NCBI GenBank assembly: GCA_965208125.1
Contig: OZ242320.1
Span: forward strand, 1,216,001-1,280,000
Length of the DNA: 64,000 bases
Source: Candidatus Latescibacterota bacterium
GTDB taxonomy: Bacteria; Latescibacterota; UBA2968
Direction of reading: 5' to 3'
Shown here piece after piece: positions 34,989 to 44,814 of this stretch. The notes under the pieces are model-generated. The model did not search any database and had not been told where the DNA came from. It saw nothing but the letters and a program-made list of their open reading frames with translations. Each line of letters begins with the position of its first letter. The stretch's first letter is position 1. Position numbers and translations under genes: made by a program.

Positions 34989-35061
34989 ATCTATATACCT
35001 CACCTGTAAAAAAGATGATGCCAAAATGGTCTCTGATTGGTAGAATCGAAAAAAATGTAAC

Positions 35062-35213
35062 TTGATGTTGTGGTTGTGGAACTTTACATTTTGATACAGA
35101 GCGGGTTGCGGTTTGCAAGACCGTTTCCTCTCTGTATGTTGCGGCAGAAGGCCACAGGCAGCCAAACCGAGCGGCCTTCTGCCATTCCCGCAGACATCAT
35201 ACATGTTTGCGGT
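35062..35213 (+). ncRNA. Structured element B, copy 1 (promoter plus putative sRNA 35096-35213)
   Basis: TTGATG-N17-TACATT followed by two conserved hairpin domains; near-identical to the 36.1 and 44.4 kb copies. Confidence 0.6.
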
Positions 35214-35241
35214 ACAGATCTCTCTTTTTTCTTTCTACCTT

Positions 35242-35736
35242 CTATTCTGCCTTCTTTATCTTCTCTATTTTGATCTGTACGGGTTGTGTTGAAATAAATT
35301 TCACCGATGCATCGCCAGAAGGGACAATTTTAACGGGTATATCGACAGCACCTGTTTGTTGGCTCGTAAGAGTAACGCTGATTCTCTCTGGGTATAAATC
35401 ATATAATGATCCTGCCATGTAATCTACCATGAGACCCACACCGGACCCGAGAAGATCAAGAAGGACAACTCCAATGTCCACTTTTTTTCTGATTCTCACC
35501 TGACGTGTCTCGTATCCTTCTTTTGAAATTGTAACATTATAATTCTGATTACGTTCCAATTCTGCTTCTGCTGGTGTGGTATATGTCTCGCCTTCTATAT
35601 CAACGGTGCTTCCTGGTGGTGTCGATCTAATGCTAATAAGTTGAGTAGAGCCATTAAGAATCAATCCACATCCAGAAAAAGAAAACAAAGAGAAAGTACA
35701 CAGCAATGCTAATGATACGGACAGGCAATTTTTCAT
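35242..35736 (-). CDS. PEGA-domain lipoprotein
   Basis: Lipobox FSGC; S.PPG..V.I.G...TP...L......VTISKEGY PEGA pattern; AAGGAAGG RBS. Confidence 0.85.
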   Translation of the reverse strand: MKNCLSVSLALLCTFSLFSFSGCGLILNGSTQLISIRSTPPGSTVDIEGETYTTPAEAELERNQNYNVTISKEGYETRQVRIRKKVDIGVVLLDLLGSGVGLMVDYMAGSLYDLYPERISVTLTSQQTGAVDIPVKIVPSGDASVKFISTQPVQIKIEKIKKAE

Positions 35737-36048
35737 AACAACAATCCTTCCTTTTCTTAAAGGTCAAATACGTAACTAAATGTGAGTGATGTCTCATTGA
35801 TGGCGACTATAATCTATCACCCACATCAAATTCTTTTTTTGCACAAAACTAACACCGCGAAATTCTAAACTCAATGAGACGACATGCTTTCTGATCTTAT
35901 CCTCCTTTCAAAAGCAAATATTACTGATAGATTGAATTACCCTGCTCCGCATCTAGGTTAATACTTCTCGCCTAGTAACAGATCGGGCACAGACATAAGT
36001 TTTAAGCCTTCTCCTCCTTTCTCGTTGCATCAAACGGGAAAATGCAAC

Positions 36049-36210
36049 TTGCTTTTGTGATAGTGGCACTTTACATTGTGAACAGAGCGGGTTGCGGTTT
36101 GCAGAACCGTTTCCCCCTCTGTATGTTGCGGCAGAAGGCCACAGGCAGCCAAACCGAGCGGCCTTCTGCCATTCCCGCAGACATAATTACCTGTTTGCGG
36201 TTTTTTTTAT
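36049..36210 (+). ncRNA. Structured element B, copy 2 (promoter plus putative sRNA 36082-36210 with terminator)
   Basis: TTGCTT-N17-TACATT; 3' hairpin ccgcagaca...tgtttgcgg followed by T8. Confidence 0.65.
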
Positions 36211-36260: not shown

Positions 36261-36300
36261 TAAAAAAACCGCGTGTCCAGAACCAGATGACACGCGGTTG
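36261..36300 (-). terminator. Intrinsic terminator downstream of element A
   Basis: Minus strand AACCGCGTGTC-loop-GACACGCGGTT followed by a T-tract. Confidence 0.85.
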
Positions 36301-36319
36301 ATTATTGTGCTATAAATAA

Positions 36320-36544
36320 TACCGAATGCCATATCACCTATGGCATCCGGTTGCATTATAGAGCCGGTCAAATGCCACAGGCTGTTAGACTCTATCTATA
36401 GCCCAGATTGAGCTCGGCCCTTTCGGAAACCGAAACCATAGCATTTAACCGGCTGGAAGTTGCACAGTATATCCGGCCCCTCCAGCCGGTGCTATAAATA
36501 AAGCCTAACGGCCTTATATTACAACATAAAAGAATCGTTTGCAA
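36320..36544 (-). ncRNA. Structured element A, copy 1, with its promoter
   Basis: TTGCAA-N17-TAATAT (36544-36516); hairpin, three-way junction and terminator-like hairpin; homologous to 44581-44814. Confidence 0.62.
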
Positions 36545-36754
36545 GAAGAAATTGCTCATAAAATTTGCTGGCGCAGTCTGGTATAAAGCGGGCCAATCCA
36601 TAGATTGTACACCCCGCTTCAGTGTGGGGCAGGACCCAAAGTAAGACCACAATGTACATACACTCACAGGTACAGAGAGGTTTCAAATTTATTCATGCTG
36701 AGTCACCGAACAACACCAGTATCGCGTGATAAAGGAGCGTGGATTTGCGTTTTA

Positions 36755-36833
36755 ACGCGAAGCAACAGCACAAAAAGAGAACGCCCCAGCATCGTTGTGC
36801 CGGGGCGTTCTCTTTTTGTGTATCAGGTAAACC
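36755..36833 (-). terminator. Shared terminator element, copy T4 (longest stem)
   Basis: cacaaaaagagaacgccccagca-tcgttg-tgccggggcgttctctttttgtg. Confidence 0.85.
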
Positions 36834-36910
36834 AAAAAACGATTGTAAAAAAAGGCTTTTTCCAGACCCGTTCTCCGACCAGTTGCACCATTGCGCCTGT
36901 TCGTAACAAC

Positions 36911-37630
36911 TCAATGTACCAATTTGATGCCCCATTCAACACACCGCGTTTCGACTTCATCAAGCGGTGCCATGGTCACGATCACGCCATCGACTGTTTT
37001 ATCGGGGTGCAAAGTCCGCATCAACCCCACTTTATCGGCAAAGCGATCCACATCTTCCACCTCGCAAACAGACTTCACTTCAAACACCAGTAAAGTGCTG
37101 TTATAGACCAGAATATCGACTTCGTAGCGGCGCCCTGAAGGTCCAATCATGCCATCCTCATCTTCAAGAGGCTGTCGCAAACGCACATTTTCAGATACAA
37201 TATCGTCTCGCCCAAGAACCAATCTCATCGTGCCAGCAACAACATCCTCGAGTTTTCTGCCAGACCGCGTTTGGAAGCGTCCCACGATCATCTCAACCCA
37301 ATCTCTCAGATCGGAAAAACGCTGATCCATCTGGTCAAACCGTTCATCAACTTTCTCAAATCGCTCATCAACTTTCTCAAATCGCTCATCAACTTTCTCA
37401 AACCGTTCATTGACTTCCGACTGAAATGTATCCATGCCTGACCGAAATGTATCAAACTCGCCACGAAAATCGCGCAATTCAGAAAGGATTGCTGCGACTT
37501 CTTCCTTAGTAGCAAAAGTCCGCATAAAAGCCGTATAGACGCGCCGTTCCATCTCTGGATGGCGTGCAAGCAAAGCCGGCAACTGCTTCTCAAGCGTCTC
37601 TAATAATTCTTCATCTGTCAACAAGGCCAT
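36911..37630 (-). CDS. Coiled-coil + PD-(D/E)xK nuclease-fold protein (DUF3782-like)
   Basis: Heptad repeats ERFEKVD x3 (21-bp repeats at ~37344-37410); E..EVDI...VFEVKS motif. Confidence 0.75.
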   Translation of the reverse strand: MALLTDEELLETLEKQLPALLARHPEMERRVYTAFMRTFATKEEVAAILSELRDFRGEFDTFRSGMDTFQSEVNERFEKVDERFEKVDERFEKVDERFDQMDQRFSDLRDWVEMIVGRFQTRSGRKLEDVVAGTMRLVLGRDDIVSENVRLRQPLEDEDGMIGPSGRRYEVDILVYNSTLLVFEVKSVCEVEDVDRFADKVGLMRTLHPDKTVDGVIVTMAPLDEVETRCVEWGIKLVH

Positions 37631-37695
37631 CTCTCATTCCTCATTAGAATTTCCATAACGCAAGGCCAACTGTTCCAATGACCTTTATCAGATCA

Positions 37696-37727
37696 AAAGT
37701 AGCCGATTTCTATGGACCTGTCAACAC
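37696..37727 (-). promoter_or_regulatory. Sigma70 promoter, identical 32-bp copy 2
   Basis: Identical to 27530-27561. Confidence 0.8.
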
Positions 37728-37736
37728 TCCTCAATG

Positions 37737-37808
37737 AACTACGCCCCAGCATCGAAATGCCGGGGCGTTCTTATGTGTCAGGTAAACTCATCCTGAATTC
37801 ATACTATT
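37737..37808 (-). terminator. Shared terminator element, copy T5 (U-tract eroded)
   Basis: acgccccagcatcgaaatgccggggcgttc...caggtaaactcatcctgaattcatactat. Confidence 0.7.
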
Positions 37809-37884
37809 CGCCATAGGGATTTGAGTCAACGCCATCGTCCACCCAATCCGAAATCCAATATAGTCTCTGATCGCTCTGCGGTCA

Positions 37885-39897
37885 TCAAAACTGCACCGTA
37901 ACTCCTCTGCCTTGAAGGGCTGGAATATGCGTGTTGATTGATGCGTCACTCAGAGGATTATCCCGCACATCAACCCTGTCTCCACTACCCCATCCCGTAT
38001 TTGCTACCAATGGCGAAAGGTCCGTGATTGAGTTATTGCGAAGCCATAATGTTTCTATATTGGTCAAGTTAGACAGCGGCGAAATATCCACGATTGAGTT
38101 ATAGTTAAGAACCAGATATGTCAGATGGGTTAAATCTGACAGTGGTGACACATCCGAGATGGTGTTATTGTTAAGAATCAGACTTGTCAAACTGGTCAAA
38201 CCGGACAGCGGGGACACATCCGAGATGGTATTACTGTTAAGCACCAGACTTGTTAAACTGGTCAAACCGGACAGTCCAGATATGTCCGAGATGCTGTTGC
38301 TGTCAAGACGTAGCCTTGTCAGGCGGGTCAACTCTGACAGTGCTGACACGGCCGAAATGGAGTTGTTGTGAAGAGTCAGATACGTCAGACTGGTCAAGCC
38401 TGACAGTGGTGACACATCCGAGATGCTGTTGCTGGAAAGACTTAGACTGCTCAGACTGGTCAAGCCTGACAGTGGTGAAAGGTCTGTGATCGAGTTGTTG
38501 GAAAGCAATAGCCTTGTCAGAATGATTGCAAACTCCAGACCGGTCAAATCGCTAATGTTCGAGTTCGGTGCATCAAGGCGGGTTAGAGTTGACATATCGC
38601 TTCTGGTGATCGTCTCGCCGCTCGACTTATCCAAAGCGTCCTCAATGGCAACACGCAGATTCGTGTCTGGGATGCTCACAGGCGTTGGGTCGATAACGTT
38701 AAAAACCACCCTAACCCCTCTATCTTGAAGGGCTGGAATGTGTGTGTTGATTGATGTTGTACCCAGAGGATTATCCTTCACATTAACATCGTCACCACTG
38801 CCTAATCCCGTATTTGCCACCAATGGCGCGAGATCGGAGATAGAGTTGTTTTGAAGCCATAGAGTTTGCAGATTGGTCAAGCCTGACAGCGGTGTGAGGT
38901 CAGAAATTGAGTTGTTGATAAGAATCAGCCCTTGCAGATTGGTCAAGTTAGACAGCGGTGAAAGATCCGTAATTGAGTTGTTGACAAGCAACAGCCCTGT
39001 CAGATTGGTCGCAAACTCAAGCCCGGTCAAATCGCTAATATTCGCATTCACTGCGGCAAAGAGGGTTAAGGTTGCCATCTCATCTCTGGAAATCGGAGCA
39101 CCACTCGCCTTGTTCAGACTGTCCTCAACCACAGCGCGCAGATTCATATCTGGAATAGAAACCATCCCTTCATCGCCACCATCAGAAGGAGACACCGTTT
39201 GACCATATTTACCTATAAGAATCCTCAAATCGCCCGCTGCAATCACCCCATCCCTATCCAGATCGTATTTCGCAACATCATCAGCTCGCCGAGACCCATA
39301 CACGCTGATCAGAAGCAGAAGGTCGGATTTACCGACAACACCATCCCCATCAAAATCGGGGGAAGGTGCGACATTAAACCTGATCACCTCTGTTGTTGTA
39401 ATAACATCCTCCACAGGCCTCGCGTTCGTATCTCCAGCAAGCACAATCCTCTTAATGCCAATAGAAAACTCTCGCCCCGTTACATCCACTGCGGTAGTAA
39501 ACTCTGCCCGTGCTAAAAAACCAGACTCAGACAAAGTCGCAGGTGAACTTGCTAATGTTCCCAAGACTGTACCAGTCGCTTCATTTTGAAGTGTAATCAG
39601 AGATGCACTGCTCCTGGCTCCGACATAGGCCAAAACAGACGCATCAAAATCAAATTCAATTCGTACACCAAGCAACGGCGTGGTCACACCTTTTGCGAAA
39701 ACTTCAACCGCGATTTTTGTCCCCTGTCCAGACACTCTACCTGAAGTAACGCCATCATCTCTCTCATTACCTGCCCCTCCATCGGCAATCAAATCAAGCG
39801 ACAAAACCGCATTCGCATTGGGACCAGCAGTCGTTTCTCCTGTACATATCAACAACCCAAAAAGGGTAAAAAACAATAATCCTTTTCTCAAAAACAT
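37885..39897 (-). CDS. Secreted cohesin-like + dockerin + two internalin-type LRR modules
   Basis: Signal peptide; PDFDGDG/YDLDRDG pair; IPD.NLR cap; 22-aa L..L.L..N.ISD.SPLSGLT repeats. Confidence 0.9.
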   Translation of the reverse strand: MFLRKGLLFFTLFGLLICTGETTAGPNANAVLSLDLIADGGAGNERDDGVTSGRVSGQGTKIAVEVFAKGVTTPLLGVRIEFDFDASVLAYVGARSSASLITLQNEATGTVLGTLASSPATLSESGFLARAEFTTAVDVTGREFSIGIKRIVLAGDTNARPVEDVITTTEVIRFNVAPSPDFDGDGVVGKSDLLLLISVYGSRRADDVAKYDLDRDGVIAAGDLRILIGKYGQTVSPSDGGDEGMVSIPDMNLRAVVEDSLNKASGAPISRDEMATLTLFAAVNANISDLTGLEFATNLTGLLLVNNSITDLSPLSNLTNLQGLILINNSISDLTPLSGLTNLQTLWLQNNSISDLAPLVANTGLGSGDDVNVKDNPLGTTSINTHIPALQDRGVRVVFNVIDPTPVSIPDTNLRVAIEDALDKSSGETITRSDMSTLTRLDAPNSNISDLTGLEFAIILTRLLLSNNSITDLSPLSGLTSLSSLSLSSNSISDVSPLSGLTSLTYLTLHNNSISAVSALSELTRLTRLRLDSNSISDISGLSGLTSLTSLVLNSNTISDVSPLSGLTSLTSLILNNNTISDVSPLSDLTHLTYLVLNYNSIVDISPLSNLTNIETLWLRNNSITDLSPLVANTGWGSGDRVDVRDNPLSDASINTHIPALQGRGVTVQF

Positions 39898-39989
39898 TTA
39901 CAACTCTCCTCTCCTATGTAGTGATGTGGTTTACGCAGAACCTGCACCCGTTCTGCTTCTTGCCCTTTCGGGATCCGAACGCCATATAG

Positions 39990-40005
39990 TGCAAAAAGCG
40001 TGCCA
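39990..40005 (-). promoter_or_regulatory. Consensus sigma54 promoter of the LRR gene
   Basis: TGGCACGCTTTTTGCA on the minus strand, about 90 nt upstream of the ATG. Confidence 0.85.
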
Positions 40006-40341
40006 ATATGAGCGTTGTTATAGATCTATATTCGTAAAGCGTTGTTTTACAAAAAGAAAAAGAGCCAATCTAACTATATTATATCGTCGCAGAATAGTCG
40101 GATTGGCTCTTACACAAGACCCTATATCGTCTTAAAAGACGTAATAGGGTCTCAATAGTCCCGAGACCACAGTACATTCTTCATTATCATTTTTCGTTTG
40201 CAAGTGTGAGATGCAATGTATGAATTAGTTTTTTCCCATATCATAAGGTTCTCTATGACCAAACCACTTGATCCCACAGGCATCTAATGGCCGAGCGCAG
40301 GCTTGCATTTTGCGGTGTGTATATGTATCTTTGCACGCGAC

Positions 40342-40477
40342 AAAAACCTTCTGGATCGCGGCTCGACAGCACGCCCGATGACAGGCAAAAACCTCTGGAT
40401 TGCGGCTCGAAACCATGCCGCGATGACAGACGGGACGGCACAGGGGCCGTCCCCTACAACACCATACCGCAATGACA
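40342..40477. repeat. REP-like palindrome cluster
   Basis: Two ctggat(c/t)gcggctc...gatgac units plus gggacggcacaggggccgtcccctac. Confidence 0.8.
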
Positions 40478-40500
40478 ACTAAAACCAAAGGAAAAAAATA

Positions 40501-41697
40501 ATGTTTGAAACACTGACAATGGCACCTGCGGATCCCATTATAGGATTGACCGAAGCATTCAAAAATGACCCAAACCCCGACAAAATAAACCTCGGCGTTG
40601 GCGTGTACAAAGACGGCGACGGCAACACGCCGATATTTGCCTCTGTAAAAACAGCGGAAGAACGCCTTTTAACACACGAAGACACCAAAAATTATCTCGG
40701 CATAGAAGGCGACGAAGCGTATAACAAAGCCGTCCAAGAACTCCTCTGGGGAACAGATCACGAAATACTCACCAGTGGTCGCGCCGGAACAGCCCAGGCA
40801 CCGGGCGGTACTGGCGCATTGCGCATTGCCGGCGACTTTATTCATCAGCACTATCCCCATGCCCGCGTATGGCTGAGCGATCCCACCTGGGCAAACCACC
40901 CCAAAATTTTTGAATCTGCTGGCGTACCCACAGAAACCTACCGCTATTACAACCCCGCGTCTTTTGGCCTAGACTTTGACGCACTTATCCAGGACCTCGG
41001 GCAAATCCCCGCAGGCGATGTCGTCTTGCTACACGGATGTTGCCACAACCCCACCGGCGTCGATCCCTCCGCCGAACAATGGGCGCAAATAGCCGATATC
41101 ATCGCAGATCGCGGCATCATCCCACTCGTAGATTTTGCCTATCAGGGCCTGGGCAACGGCCTCGTCGAAGACGCAGTCGGACTCCTATCTCTCAGCCGGC
41201 CCGGCTGCGAACTCCTCGTCGCCAGTTCCTTCTCCAAAAACTTTGGCCTCTACCGCGAGCGCACGGGCGCATTGACCCTCGTCGGAAAAGACGCCACCGC
41301 CGTTGAAAAAGCGATGAGCCACATCAAAATCTGCATCCGCACAAATTATTCCAACCCGCCATCGCACGGCGCCCAGGCAGTCGCAACGGTTCTCAACGAC
41401 CCCGACTTGCGGGCACAATGGGACGGCGAAGTAAAAGCCATGCGCGACCGCATCAACAACATGCGCACCCTATTTGTGGATACCCTCGAAACAAAAGGCG
41501 TGCGGCGCGACTTTTCGTTTATCGCACACCAGAGGGGAATGTTCTCTTTCTCCGGATTGACTCCCGAGCAAGTAGAAGCATTGCGCGAGAAATTTTCAAT
41601 ATACATCGTCAATTCGGGACGGATTAACGTGGCGGGCATGACAAAGGACAACATCGGGCCATTGTGCGAAGCGATAGCGGAAGTGATGGACGAATAG
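40501..41697 (+). CDS. aspC: Aspartate/aromatic aminotransferase (class I)
   Basis: KINLGVGVY, GGTGAL, HGCCHNPTG, DFAYQG and SFSKNFGLYRER motifs. Confidence 0.95.
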   Translation: MFETLTMAPADPIIGLTEAFKNDPNPDKINLGVGVYKDGDGNTPIFASVKTAEERLLTHEDTKNYLGIEGDEAYNKAVQELLWGTDHEILTSGRAGTAQAPGGTGALRIAGDFIHQHYPHARVWLSDPTWANHPKIFESAGVPTETYRYYNPASFGLDFDALIQDLGQIPAGDVVLLHGCCHNPTGVDPSAEQWAQIADIIADRGIIPLVDFAYQGLGNGLVEDAVGLLSLSRPGCELLVASSFSKNFGLYRERTGALTLVGKDATAVEKAMSHIKICIRTNYSNPPSHGAQAVATVLNDPDLRAQWDGEVKAMRDRINNMRTLFVDTLETKGVRRDFSFIAHQRGMFSFSGLTPEQVEALREKFSIYIVNSGRINVAGMTKDNIGPLCEAIAEVMDE

Positions 41698-41850
41698 ACG
41701 GAGCGGTAACTGGTCGTTTCTCAGGCCAGTTCATCAACGGAGCGGGGTAACGCCAGACTGTACCATCGCTGTTGAGCGATGAAGGTTATACGACGGCGTG
41801 TGTGGGCAATTTAATCCTGTAAAGCGTGCAAAAAATTTCCCTTTTCAGTA

Positions 41851-44313
41851 CTATTGGTTCACAATAATCTGGTTGTGTTCGTTGTCACCAATGACCTCCC
41901 ACGGGGTTGGCGCATCCACTGTGCCTATGATGTTAATCAGCACCTTGCCAGAGGTTTTTACCCGGATTCCGACAGTATTCGCGCGAATAAAACCCGTGAC
42001 AATAATCGTGATGTCGCCAGTCTCACTCTCGGCACTGATGCCGATTCCGTGGCGGTTGCTGGCGATAATGGTGCCGTCGATGACAATCTCTATATCGCCG
42101 CTACCCGCCGGGCGCGAGGGGTCGTAGAGTACATTTTTACTTTCGGCTAAAATCCCGATAGCTCTGGGACCAGACACGACGATATCACCGCTGTTGTCGA
42201 TGACGATATCACCAGCTGAATACACGCGGGTTTCCCCGTCAACGGTGATGTCCCTGCCATACGCTTGGGCATATATCCCGTGAGAGCGGGCTCGGCTCGT
42301 CTCAATGCGACCCGAGTTGGCGATTTCGATCTTGCCGCCGAGGCCGTGATGTGCCCTCAGCCCGCTTGCATCCTCTCCGCGTGTTGTGATCTGACCGGTA
42401 TTCGCCGCGTAGGTCAGCCGAGTTTCTCCGATGGGATCAGGGGGCAACAATCTGAATTTTTCTCGGCTGCGCTGGTCGAGAAGATCGTGGAACGGCGTGA
42501 TATCAAACCCAGGAATCCAGAAGGCGAAAGCCAAAAGGCCCGAAGACCTCAAGCCAGTAGTTGAAACAGTTCCTTCATTGATGCCATAAGCTTGACCAGA
42601 CCTCTTCGCTGCGACCGCAATTCCAGGGCTGCGGCGCCCCGTTGTCTCGATGATGCCGGTGCGGTAGTTTCGCGCGTATGCAGCACCTGCGGCATTGGTT
42701 TTCGGCCGCGTTATGATTTCCTCTTGTATGTGGTGGCAACCCTCATTGTCAAAATAGGCAGCACAGGTCTCGGAATGAATACCATCGCTGAGTCTTCCCC
42801 TTGTCGTTACGCTGCCGGTATTATGCGTCTGCGTTGTGCCCCACAAGGTCTGCGCTGCCACTCCGCGGCTACTAACGCCCTCTACATCGATGGTTCCGTA
42901 GTTGATTGAGCGGGCAAGCTGGCCGCCGGTCTCGACGAATAGGCCATCTTGTCGGCCTTCGTCCCCAGTGATGAGAATACTGCCGCTCGACAGGTTGATG
43001 GACTCGGCAACATGTGTGTCGTCGTGTGGTGCGGCACTCTTGTGGATTTGGCTCGCGATGCCCCGTAGCGTTTTATCCGTCGAGTTATCGATTGTTACCG
43101 TACCGTAATTAGCTGTGTATACATTTCCACTGCCGCGCGAATATGTCCGCAGTCCTATACCCCATTCGAGTATTTGGATCATGCCCTTATTGACCAGCAT
43201 TAAATCGTCGGTATTTCCATACGTTATAATATTTATAGCAAACGCATTGGTCGCGTTGATCCCCGCTGTTTCTGTGAATGTGGCCGCGTATGCCTGCTTT
43301 TTTTCGTCTGAACTGTTGATGAAATTGAGGGCTGAGGTACCGGAGGGAACAGTGATCGTGCCTGCATCGTAATAGACATGGGTGGCGATGTCGGGATCAG
43401 AGGCTGTCGCTGGATTTAGCGGCGTTACCCTGTCGCCTTCGTAGCTATCGGTTATTGGGAGGGTAATTGTGTAATCCCTTACCGGGTATGGCGAAAAAGC
43501 TGGAGAAGGGTTGGACAGCGTGAGATGATCAAAGCGTACATTAACCCCTCTCTCAGATAGGGCGGGAATGTGCGTATTGAGCGACATGGCACTCAGCGGA
43601 TTATTATTCAGTAAAACCCAGTCGTCCTTGTCCAATCCCGTATTAGCTACCAATGGCGCGATATCCGAGATTGTATTGCCACGAAGATATAGATGTGTCA
43701 GGCCGGTCAGGTTGGCAACTGGCGCAATATCCGAGATCGCATTGCCATCGAGATTCAGCCATCTCAGGCTGGTCAACTCATCTATCGGTGCGATGGTAGA
43801 TATGTCGTTGCTGTTTACTTTTCGCCCCTCTATCCAATCATAGCCAAAATTTAGCCGTGTCAGATTCGTTGCATACTCGAGACCTGTCAAATTGCGAATG
43901 GCTTTGTTAGGTGCGTCAAGGCGCGTCAATTTTGACATATCGTCCGGGGTAATAGGTGCATCGCTTGTTTTGCCGAGAATTTTGGCAATGACCGCACGCA
44001 GGTTCTCATCTGGAATGTCAACAGTCGTTGTGCCGCCACTGCCTGACGGCGGAAATGTCTTGCCCCAATTGGAAATAAGGAGCCTTAAGTCCAATTCATC
44101 AACGATCTTATCACTTTTCAGATCAAACTTCGCATCCCAATTTGGTCCACCTGCTCGCGTTCCCCAATTGGAAATAAGGAGCCTTAAGTCCAATTCATCA
44201 ACGATCCCATCGTCGTTAAAGTCAGGAGAAGGCGTAGGGGTCTGAGATGCAAGAGACAGCGGATAGGCCAACACACATAAACAAATCATCAAAAACGCAA
44301 CACGAAACTTCAT
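41851..44313 (-). CDS. Secreted dockerin + LRR + autotransporter-passenger-like beta-helix protein
   Basis: Signal peptide, duplicated IVDELDLRLLISNWG, LRR module, N.G.I.T.G..S.GI.A repeats; no C-terminal beta-barrel. Confidence 0.82.
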   Translation of the reverse strand: MKFRVAFLMICLCVLAYPLSLASQTPTPSPDFNDDGIVDELDLRLLISNWGTRAGGPNWDAKFDLKSDKIVDELDLRLLISNWGKTFPPSGSGGTTTVDIPDENLRAVIAKILGKTSDAPITPDDMSKLTRLDAPNKAIRNLTGLEYATNLTRLNFGYDWIEGRKVNSNDISTIAPIDELTSLRWLNLDGNAISDIAPVANLTGLTHLYLRGNTISDIAPLVANTGLDKDDWVLLNNNPLSAMSLNTHIPALSERGVNVRFDHLTLSNPSPAFSPYPVRDYTITLPITDSYEGDRVTPLNPATASDPDIATHVYYDAGTITVPSGTSALNFINSSDEKKQAYAATFTETAGINATNAFAINIITYGNTDDLMLVNKGMIQILEWGIGLRTYSRGSGNVYTANYGTVTIDNSTDKTLRGIASQIHKSAAPHDDTHVAESINLSSGSILITGDEGRQDGLFVETGGQLARSINYGTIDVEGVSSRGVAAQTLWGTTQTHNTGSVTTRGRLSDGIHSETCAAYFDNEGCHHIQEEIITRPKTNAAGAAYARNYRTGIIETTGRRSPGIAVAAKRSGQAYGINEGTVSTTGLRSSGLLAFAFWIPGFDITPFHDLLDQRSREKFRLLPPDPIGETRLTYAANTGQITTRGEDASGLRAHHGLGGKIEIANSGRIETSRARSHGIYAQAYGRDITVDGETRVYSAGDIVIDNSGDIVVSGPRAIGILAESKNVLYDPSRPAGSGDIEIVIDGTIIASNRHGIGISAESETGDITIIVTGFIRANTVGIRVKTSGKVLINIIGTVDAPTPWEVIGDNEHNQIIVNQ
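44063..44206. repeat. Perfect 45-bp direct repeat (99-bp period) forming the two dockerin halves
   Basis: ccccaattggaaataaggagccttaagtccaattcatcaacgatc at 44063 and 44162. Confidence 0.9.
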
Positions 44314-44361
44314 GATCGCCCCTCCCTTTCTCGTCGCATTCCTCAACCGGAAAAATGCAAC

Positions 44362-44522
44362 TTGATTTTGTGGTGGTGGAACTTTACATTGTGCATAGAG
44401 CGGGTTGCGGTTTGCAAGACCGTTCCCCTCTCTGTATGTTGCGGCAGAAGGCCACAGGTGGCCAAACCGAGCGGCCTTCTGTCATTCCCGCAAACATAAC
44501 ACACGTTTGCAGGTTTTTATTT
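44362..44522 (+). ncRNA. Structured element B, copy 3
   Basis: TTGATT-N17-TACATT; same hairpins; gcaaac...gtttgc followed by a T-tract. Confidence 0.62.
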
Positions 44523-44580
44523 ACGACAATCGTTCTGTCAGGACTTTCTCATCTTCTCGATTTACAGTCTGGAATCAGAC

Positions 44581-44814
44581 AAAAAAACACCGAATGCCAT
44601 ATCACCTATGACATCCGGTTTCTCTATTGAATATGCCGATTAAATGCCACAGGCTACCTTCTTAATCTATAGCCTAGATTAAGTTCGGTTCCTTTAGTCC
44701 CCGAAGCCATAGCATTTAACCGGCTGGAAGTTGCACAGTATATCCGGCTCCCTCCAGCCGGTAGGCTATATTTAAGAAGGCACCTTATGATAAACATTAA
44801 TAAACTTTACGCAA
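44581..44814 (-). ncRNA. Structured element A, copy 2, ending in an intrinsic terminator
   Basis: TTGCGT-N16-TATCAT; compensatory changes relative to copy 1; hairpin followed by GTTTTTTT. Confidence 0.62.

Follow-up and report, generated by a model that had tools for sequence, protein, structure and literature searches.

Locus and copies of Element A

The stretch analysed (the window) comprises 64,000 nucleotides (nt) of a Candidatus Latescibacterota bacterium, positions 1,216,001 to 1,280,000 of contig OZ242320.1 in assembly GCA_965208125.1. It contains two copies of a repeated element, designated Element A, each of about 200 nt and both on the minus strand, at about 36512-36307 (copy 1) and 44784-44575 (copy 2). 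Copy 1 is followed by the gene of a PEGA lipoprotein and then by that of an outer-membrane barrel, and copy 2 by the gene of a protein with a dockerin domain and leucine-rich repeats (LRR). The best reading of Element A is probably that of an undescribed cis-regulatory RNA.

A repeat finder aligned copy 1 with copy 2 over 87 nt at 85% and over 49 nt at 86% identity. In a 621/581-nt alignment of both copy regions with their flanks, the column identity is 82%, and the likeness runs on downstream into a second module (module B). The source genome (5.75 Mb, one contig) holds only two full copies according to both BLAST and a covariance model. The two minus-strand copies given in the initial annotation are thus recovered by repeat finder, alignment, BLAST and covariance model alike. 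The term "two-copy" used there is correct for the source genome but not for its relatives, which carry up to three full-length copies plus partial ones.

Distribution of the family

BLAST matches were found in 14 of 61 genomes, the source genome included; apart from it, they occurred in 12 of 20 genomes of the same genus and in one of two genomes of a second genus. Nineteen full-length copies from 11 genomes (of 21 in the genus) were aligned with MAFFT, giving alignment A2 with a mean column identity of 76%, and a covariance model, R1, was built from it. R1 matches 15 of the 21 genus genomes at E<=1e-3, 14 of 31 family genomes at E<=1e-4 (two of six genera) and 15 of 53 order genomes at E<=1e-5 (three of 11 genera). 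The order search yielded a single copy in a second family, in one of the 22 genomes of that family. A 17-nt pattern scanned over the genome contigs gave at least 120 loci; among the matches listed, three carry Element A and 117 are without a model match. With a longer pattern, five loci were obtained from metagenome contigs, and all five are true matches. No match to Element A was found by blastn in a phage collection (50,697 records) or in a plasmid collection. The Element A family is real and is limited to one order among the genomes searched, plus metagenomes.

The family comprises the 19 full-length genus copies, diverged copies of two further genera and the five metagenome contigs, and 29 members were aligned by fitting to the model. 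This alignment leans towards the structure of the model itself, and the figures obtained with MAFFT are the more conservative ones.

Conserved helices

RNAalifold applied to A2 gives five helices, named P1, P2, P3, P4 and T1. In the MAFFT alignment of 19 sequences, 94.1% of the 999 cells are paired and nine pairs are changed on both sides; none of 500 shuffles reaches the paired fraction or the covariation score, and slid partners are 27-47% paired. In the model-fitted alignment of 29 sequences, the paired fraction is 96.0% of 1350 cells, with 17 of 48 pairs (60 cells) changed on both sides. Again 0 of 500 shuffles are as good, and slid partners give 25-48%. The stems are thus kept in further homologues.

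P1 is the hairpin ACCGGCTGGA/TCCAGCCGGT that had been noted behind the promoter. It is paired in 90.8% of cells of the 19 sequences, four of its pairs being changed on both sides, and in its extended form it shares GCCGG with the base of P2. A junction closed by AAATGCTATGG/CTGTGGCATTT and holding two stems that vary compensatorily had been proposed as well. This closing helix is the core of P2, a 20-bp helix (GCCGG...CCGGC) in which GCCGGUUAAAUGCUAUGGUU is paired with AGCCUGUGGCAUUUGACCGGC and 98.6-98.9% of the cells are paired. The two inner stems are P3 and P4, and both the 19- and the 29-sequence alignments contain compensatory changes in them. The junction therefore stands. It is, however, one of two competing folds, which the initial annotation had missed.

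A pseudoknot or alternative pairing between the GGCTAT loop and a downstream AGCC had also been suggested and was rejected. Its cells are 82.7% paired, there is no compensatory change, and the variation breaks the pairing. The AGCC belongs to the top of P2, where AGCC/AACC pairs with GGUU/GGCU.

Pairing of the leader with the P4 region

The second fold involves the very start of the element. The leader L, the first ~22 nt from the predicted transcript start up to P1, is complementary over about 20 bp to a strand L' that spans the loop and 3' arm of P4 and the junction as far as P2. For copy 1, RNAduplex gives 21-23 bp at -27.0 to -31.8 kcal/mol, the cognate partner ranking first against non-cognate ones. 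The best duplexes in the 19 sequences have 16-21 bp and a mean energy of -25.1 kcal/mol, compared with -12.9 for non-cognate partners and -9.5 kcal/mol for shuffled leaders (0 of 5000 permutations as good). Each of the 29 sequences forms 13-23 bp, with a cognate mean of -27.0 versus a non-cognate mean of -13.4 kcal/mol; 0 of 10,000 permutations are as good, and the cognate partner is ranked first in 21 of 29. In the copies from other genera and from metagenomes, L and L' are quite different in sequence yet still matched. The L:L' pairing is copy-specific. On the raw MAFFT columns, an alignment that is poor in the leader, L:L' is 70.6% paired and seven of 11 pairs are changed on both sides.

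The P4 5' arm follows the changes of L' as well, double-sided changes being seen in P4 pairs. Since L:L' and P4 are both kept by paired changes, L' has two selected partners, L and the P4 5' arm; P4 and L:L' cannot form together. L:L' moreover crosses P2. In the copy at L195, which lacks P1, L adjoins the P2 5' arm and L' adjoins the P2 3' arm. By single-sequence folding, the L:L' fold is lower in energy than the P2 fold in 17 of the 19 sequences, and the minimum free energy (MFE) fold of copy 1 contains the L:L' helix (-90.8 kcal/mol, z -7.41).

The ratio of G.U to A.C combinations is 78:1 in P2, 43:4 in L:L' and 22:3 in T1. Such an excess of G.U over A.C indicates RNA-level selection on the minus strand, and the earlier statement that G.U pairs fix the strand is upheld, above all by P2.

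Terminator and possible antiterminator

T1 has the form of an intrinsic terminator in both copies, a G+C-rich hairpin with a 13-bp stem passing directly into a U-run, and the terminator hairpin of the initial annotation is thereby confirmed. The helix is kept, 94.3% of its cells being paired in the 29-sequence alignment. Because the T1 5' arm is like a P2 5' arm in shortened form, AUGYCAUAGG of T1 can alternatively be paired with CCUGUGGCAU of the P2 3' arm. The resulting antiterminator pairing is found in 98.4% of cells in the 19 sequences and in 97.4% of 266 cells in the 29 (slid controls 30-52%); in the latter set, six pairs show one-sided variation that preserves the pairing. A conserved AGG of the T1 loop is unpaired in T1 and pairs with an invariant CCU in the antiterminator. 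The antiterminator hairpin of copy 1 (36383-36337) has -21.3 kcal/mol and z -4.13 against -21.1 kcal/mol for T1; for copy 2 (44655-44605) the values are -15.7 kcal/mol and z -3.21 against -18.5.

In copy 1, a second intrinsic terminator, T2, lies 20 nt after T1. Its 5' arm AACCGCGUGUCAU resembles that of T1. In front of T2 stands UUAUUUAUAGCAC, which repeats the 3' part of the leader L. Directly after T1 or T2, a conserved GUCUGAU.CAGACUGUAAAUCGAGAAGA block is found in the window (44550-44582) and at L186, L188 and L179.

Promoter block and incomplete copies

A sigma70 promoter had been assigned directly upstream of each copy. The consensus promoter scan scores the hexamers of both copies at 8/12 and does not call them, but the block TTGCAA...TGTnGTAT-TATAAG is kept across the MAFFT-aligned homologues. 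In two truncated copies, the promoter, P1, the P2 5' arm and P3 run directly into a Shine-Dalgarno sequence and an ATG, so that the promoter can act as an mRNA promoter.

These truncated copies occur in other genomes of the genus (L020 and L013). They comprise the promoter, P1, the P2 5' arm, P3 and part of P4 and are fused to AAAGGAGA and the ATG of a gene starting MLYKLGSTDGKF. The copy at L196 1523-1857 has a 129-nt insertion in the P4 loop region and a T1 loop without AGG, and a gene of a Bor-family lipoprotein comes next. In the source genome, the covariance model also matches an 86-nt fragment of Element A at G000:C1:4922907-4922992 (locus L197 1508-1593), made up of the end of the P2 3' arm, the linker and T1. 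An open reading frame (ORF) of 190 amino acids precedes this fragment and a PIN-domain gene follows it; the fragment has the look of a truncated relic.

Downstream genes and module B

A co-oriented ORF is present downstream of all 19 full-length genus copies and likewise at L198, L201 and L202. The placement before genes of surface or exported proteins, as described earlier, is supported by this constant arrangement. The first genes belong to at least 12 unrelated protein families; among them are ankyrin-repeat proteins, a cadherin/fn3, a CARDB/dockerin and an LDL-receptor-repeat protein, an outer-membrane barrel, FGE-sulfatase pieces and several proteins without a family, and LRR, WD40 and ankyrin genes are found further on in the same clusters. 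By a crude reading of hydrophobic runs, about 14 of the 19 first gene products have a signal-like N-terminus.

Within the window, two large minus-strand genes (37885-39897 and 41851-44346) contain 66-nt (22-residue) leucine-rich repeats and a dockerin-type domain, and several repeat families are common to both. Four tandem 21-nt repeats (37316-37420) lie within a 239-amino-acid ORF (36911-37630) that has only weak Pfam matches of coiled-coil type.

No promoter-like site was called by the promoter scan between T1 and the copy 2 gene, and between T1/T2 and the genes none was called except one 9/12 site inside T2. A sequence TTGCTG-N16-TATAAA upstream of module B in copy 1 was seen by eye only.

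Module B is about 180 nt long and stands between Element A and the gene in 13 of 19 loci. Its hairpins GGCAGAAGGCC...GGCCUUCUGCC and ACAGAG...CUCUGU are conserved, and the modules behind copies 1 and 2 end in a Shine-Dalgarno sequence. The source genome has eight matches, and the module also occurs alone between the genes of one cluster. Rfam gave no match for it, and its strong conservation leaves little covariation. On the plus strand, the first hairpin together with the preceding A-run (36175-36200) forms a terminator-like site that could stop antisense transcription. Behind the module of copy 1, the minus strand at 35740-36020 carries only a 12-codon ORF and about 270 nt that are apparently non-coding; the PEGA gene, which has a ribosome-binding site of its own, comes next. 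Loss of a gene between this module and the PEGA gene is possible. Transposase genes of the Mutator, DDE and ISL3 types were observed beside or within such leader-gene units (L180 5693-6931 and 3758-5617; L194 1748-3025; L189 3452-4690), and at L180 they split Element A from its module B. The features of the window are collected in Table 1.

Table 1. Window positions of the two Element A copies, their parts and the features behind them
Feature	Position	Strand	Basis
Copy 1 promoter-like block TTGCAA, 17 nt, TAATAT	36516-36544	-	read from sequence; conserved in homologues (MAFFT)
Copy 1 leader L, first ~21-23 nt of predicted transcript, pairs with L'	36490-36510	-	RNAduplex
Copy 1 P1 hairpin CCGGCUGGAG ... 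CUUCCAGCCGG	36449-36489	-	90.8% paired, 4 double-sided changes
Copy 1 P2 5' arm GCCGGUUAAAUGCUAUGGUU, GCCGG common with P1 3' arm	36434-36453	-	helix 98.6-98.9% paired
Copy 1 P3 hairpin, GAAA loop	36414-36433	-	alignment pairing counts
Copy 1 P4 5' arm GCUCAAUCU, competitor of L for L'	36405-36413	-	P4 pairs covary
Copy 1 L': P4 loop GGGCUAU, P4 3' arm and junction CUAAC	36384-36405	-	complementary to L
Copy 1 P2 3' arm AGCCUGUGGCAUUUGACCGGC, its CCUGUGGCAU alternatively pairing with T1 5' arm	36363-36383	-	alignment counts
Copy 1 terminator T1, 13-bp stem 36351-36321 and U-rich tail	36311-36351	-	-21.1 kcal/mol, z -7.0; covariation
Copy 1 second terminator T2, 5' arm like that of T1; absent from copy 2	36262-36299	-	sequence, BLAST
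Module B after copy 1, separate repeated element of the 5' untranslated region	36025-36205	-	repeat finder, BLAST
First intact gene after copy 1: PEGA-domain protein, lipoprotein-like N-terminus	35242-35736	-	domain and N-terminus reading
Further copy of module B	35038-35217	-	repeats
Copy 2 promoter-like block TTGCGT, 16 nt, TATCAT	44787-44814	-	read from sequence, aligned with homologues
Copy 2 leader L	44761-44782	-	L:L' 19-20 bp, -25.5 to -27.1 kcal/mol, rank 1
Copy 2 P1 hairpin	44720-44761	-	sequence and P1 pairing counts
Copy 2 P2 5' arm	44705-44724	-	RNAalifold and pairing counts
Copy 2 P3 hairpin, variant UCGGGGACUAAAGGAACCGA	44685-44704	-	sequence and pairing counts
Copy 2 P4 5' arm (44684-44676) and L' (44677-44656)	44656-44684	-	pairing counts, duplex computation
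Copy 2 P2 3' arm, also antiterminator 5' arm	44635-44655	-	pairing counts
Copy 2 terminator T1, stem 44619-44589 and seven-T run	44579-44619	-	-18.5 kcal/mol, z -6.47
Module B after copy 2, Shine-Dalgarno at its end, 7 nt before ATG	44343-44518	-	repeat finder, alignment
Gene after copy 2: dockerin and LRR protein, signal-like N-terminus	41851-44313	-	ATG at 44313 by reading

Search for known RNAs

No Rfam family reaches its threshold in a scan of the elements. The top or only Rfam match for the junction core is c4-2 (RF02944) in 10 of 17 elements examined, with 21.5-33.3 bits against a gathering score of 41; the other seven have no c4-2 match at the E limits used. The highest score, 33.3 bits, belongs to L188; in a 61.6-kb search, the lowest E-value was 0.0037. 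A c4-2 search of the source genome at E<=1 returned copy 1 only (21.5 bits, E 0.195). The c4-2 architecture is present, namely a closing stem around two hairpins, UAUGG, a GAAA loop and a CCU junction, and the helices covary. Element A is not filed as a c4-2 member; the resemblance of its junction core to that family is weak. Other weak Rfam matches (SpF25, AaHKsRNA82, ceN48 and others) lie outside Element A or on T2 and are far below threshold. No Rfam riboswitch family matches Element A at E<=1. Full-text searches of literature on Latescibacterota (sponge, eukaryotic-like proteins, riboswitch) yielded no such RNA.

As judged from its sequences, the Element A family is new to Rfam and well supported by covariation. 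Of the initial annotation of an undescribed cis-regulatory attenuator or small RNA, the undescribed and cis-regulatory parts agree with the lack of an Rfam family at threshold and with the co-oriented gene behind 19 of 19 copies; its pseudoknot and peptide parts do not hold.

Proposed mechanism and alternative explanations

Element A may be a promoter-proximal leader of about 200 nt that works in cis as a conditional transcription terminator (attenuator) by means of mutually exclusive helices; the probability of this reading is estimated at about one half. In fold A, the 20-bp P2 would close a three-way junction with P3 (GAAA loop) and P4, T1 would then form, and transcription would stop. In fold B, the first ~22 nt (L) would pair with L', by which P4 would be destroyed and P2 presumably kept from closing. 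The P2 3' arm freed in this way would pair through CCUGUGGCAU with AUGYCAUAGG of the T1 5' arm as an antiterminator, and the polymerase would read into the gene. Termination would be favoured by a protein, RNA or ligand that keeps the highly conserved junction shut or that blocks L. The structure is well supported; that read-through is regulated, and the direction of the switch, are inferred.

Several points weigh against such an attenuator. That L:L' and P2 (about 20 bp each) cannot both close during transcription is taken from the topology and not from a computation. The leader L varies between copies, so that a common sequence-specific factor cannot bind it. In the antiterminator, only one pair is changed on both sides, and much of the pairing potential is automatic, given the resemblance of T1 to a shortened P2. 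When L:L' is imposed, folding still favours T1 over the antiterminator by 3-15 kcal/mol in 13 of 19 sequences. T2 follows T1 in nine of the 19 full-length copies (counted by eye), copy 1 included, and is not covered by the antiterminator. Finally, L194 has an insertion sequence (IS) element downstream and L195 has opposite-strand ORFs, and neither has a close co-oriented gene.

The main rival, although on the whole unlikely, is a c4-type antisense or processed small RNA. The P2/P3/P4 core would be released, terminated by T1 and trimmed on its 5' side, and would act via the P4 loop region on the matching L of transcripts of its own locus, as a copy-specific self-regulation, or on other targets. 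In c4 systems, RNase P produces an RNA of about 77 nt. The c4-2 matches with UAUGG, the GAAA hairpin, the second hairpin and CCU are consistent with this, as are the strong and sometimes double terminators, and a copy-specific match of L and L' is what would be expected of an antisense specificity determinant. According to PMC5320573, c4 RNAs consist of three stem-loops cut from a longer transcript, the loops of which pair with sites on the co-transcribed mRNA (further c4 background is given in PMC8198154). However, every c4-2 score stays below 41, and only copy 1 was detected at E<=1 in the source genome. Within the 700 nt downstream, the strongest duplexes formed by L' do not exceed those of non-cognate combinations at 19 loci, which leaves the c4-type target at a downstream ribosome-binding site without a counterpart, and a genome-wide ungapped scan for sites matching L' gave only background-level matches apart from the own locus. 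Since the complementary site is part of the same molecule, upstream of the core, pairing in cis would dominate. The phage or prophage immunity context of c4 is missing, the neighbours being repeat-protein, outer-membrane, dehydrogenase and aminotransferase genes, and there is no similarity to the phage or plasmid records searched. A free-standing small RNA would also not require the constant co-orientation with the downstream gene. Rather improbable is a constitutive structural leader that senses nothing, in which L:L' stacked on P1 would bury the mRNA 5' end against decay, or would offer a long duplex for processing of the RNase III type, while the terminator would be leaky or vestigial. L:L' indeed starts at the predicted first nucleotides of the transcript, is the MFE fold and makes up a helix of about 30 bp with P1, and the module B elements downstream suggest untranslated regions of several parts. 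Such a leader leaves unexplained why P2, P4 and the antiterminator potential are conserved alongside L:L' and why a strong intrinsic terminator follows the fold in nearly all members.

A metabolite or second-messenger riboswitch, in which a small ligand binds the three-way junction and fixes fold A, would be a special case of the attenuator and is improbable. The structured domain does adjoin a mutually exclusive terminator and antiterminator, and sequence conservation of P2 and P3 is high even in the diverged genera. On the other hand, almost all conserved nucleotides lie within helices, the strands of the junction are either short or variable (as J4/2 is), copies outside the genus do not retain the P4 loop, and no known class matches. 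The downstream genes have no common pathway, transport or other metabolic theme (ankyrin, LRR, WD40, cadherin/fn3, CARDB/dockerin, outer-membrane protein, PEGA, FGE-sulfatase and many without a known family). Riboswitches, furthermore, do not usually have a competitor strand that is transcribed ahead of the aptamer, as is the case here for the putative one. A leader-peptide attenuator of the trp type, in which translation of a mini-ORF from the P2 5' arm would choose between antiterminator and terminator, is very improbable. The helices are laid out 1:2 / 2:3 / 3:4 as in classical attenuators, and an ATG lies inside the P2 5' arm in 21 of the 22 sequences read. This ATG is, however, buried within a 20-bp helix and is missing in one member. 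Across 22 homologues the frame has 10-44 codons, no stop fixed relative to the hairpins and no upstream Shine-Dalgarno sequence, although the genes here have strong ones. The residues shift with helix compensation (VSVSERA, VSGTKVT, ASGTKGT). The initial annotation had described a mini-ORF ending ELNLGYR and conserved through three synonymous changes. These changes exist, but the frame ends in ...GYR only in copy 1 and continues to ...GYRLRR in copy 2, and the differences sit at paired or L-pairing positions and are explained by RNA pairing (column pair 113-131, for example, is CG in 14 and UA in four sequences). Practically negligible is the chance that L and L' act at the DNA level and not as RNA arms, be it as inverted repeats of a phase-variable (invertible) segment or as a site of another kind. 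Locus-specific matched inverted repeats before surface-protein genes recall invertible promoters. Mismatches in such repeats would be symmetrical between the strands, whereas those of L:L' are strand-specific, with 43 G.U against four A.C. The promoter lies outside the repeats, the enclosed segment has only about 95 bp, and no recombinase gene was noted adjoining the loci.

Returning to the attenuator, a more speculative extension can be proposed and is itself unlikely, namely a four-layer self-addressed RNA switch on a c4-like fold, in which L:L' would compete with P4/P2, and these in turn with the antiterminator and the terminator. L would be the private key of its copy, and the copies would be insulated units, each setting the transcription of a single gene for an exported or eukaryote-like protein. 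Feedback in trans by terminated and processed cores would be conceivable, though on nascent leaders of the same copy only. If true, this would mean that host-interaction gene sets of an uncultured phylum follow a regulatory logic that is new.

Significance

Element A shows two competing folds that are conserved separately, a situation that is less common than one conserved fold and tells more. In PMC12993501, ankyrin, LRR, WD40, cadherin and dockerin protein classes are reported to be abundant in the genomes of sponge Latescibacterota. If the switch model is true, it would give access to the way in which such genes are activated in uncultivable organisms, and it would offer a compact natural attenuator of several layers with copy-specific addressing. 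The narrow distribution, one order in the genomes searched, limits the general reach.

Comparison with known systems

Like riboswitches that control terminators, Element A has a conserved structured domain directly before a terminator and an alternative pairing that involves the closing helix. Unlike them, it matches no known class, has no conserved unpaired pocket and no common metabolic theme, and its competitor strand is 5' of the domain. The Bacillus pyr/PyrR and trp/TRAP leaders are multi-hairpin attenuators with an anti-antiterminator. As in these leaders, an anti-antiterminator (P2 in Element A), an antiterminator and an intrinsic terminator are mutually exclusive, and the decision would be taken during transcription of the 5' leader. 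Element A differs by having no sequence likeness to them and no known binding protein, by an additional upstream layer in which L:L' competes with the anti-antiterminator and by preceding genes of exported or eukaryote-like proteins and not a biosynthetic operon.

The put RNA of phage HK022 and the Bacillus EAR are processive antitermination RNAs. They are comparable as leader RNAs before surface-structure genes with downstream terminators, and a mode of action of their kind could account for the loci with tandem T1 and T2. An overlap with the terminator, as seen in Element A, is not a feature of put and EAR.

Similar in architecture is c4-2 (RF02944, clan CL00128), which PMC5737381 calls a likely distant homologue of a known RNA. 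The differences are that the complementary site of Element A is upstream at the very 5' end and continuous over about 20 bp, in place of a downstream ribosome-binding site, that a terminator with an alternative antiterminator comes after the core, and that the element occurs outside a phage context in genomes labelled as Latescibacterota. Common to both are a closing stem, an inner stem starting with UAUGG, a GAAA-capped first hairpin, a second hairpin and a junction with CCU at its end. Element A and c4 also both lie at the 5' side of a protein-gene transcript (for c4, PMC5320573). The second-hairpin region of Element A is strongly complementary to the upstream 5' leader, which may or may not correspond to the a1/b1 sites of c4 systems. 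A distant link between the two, which is possible, would widen the range and the uses of the c4 family.

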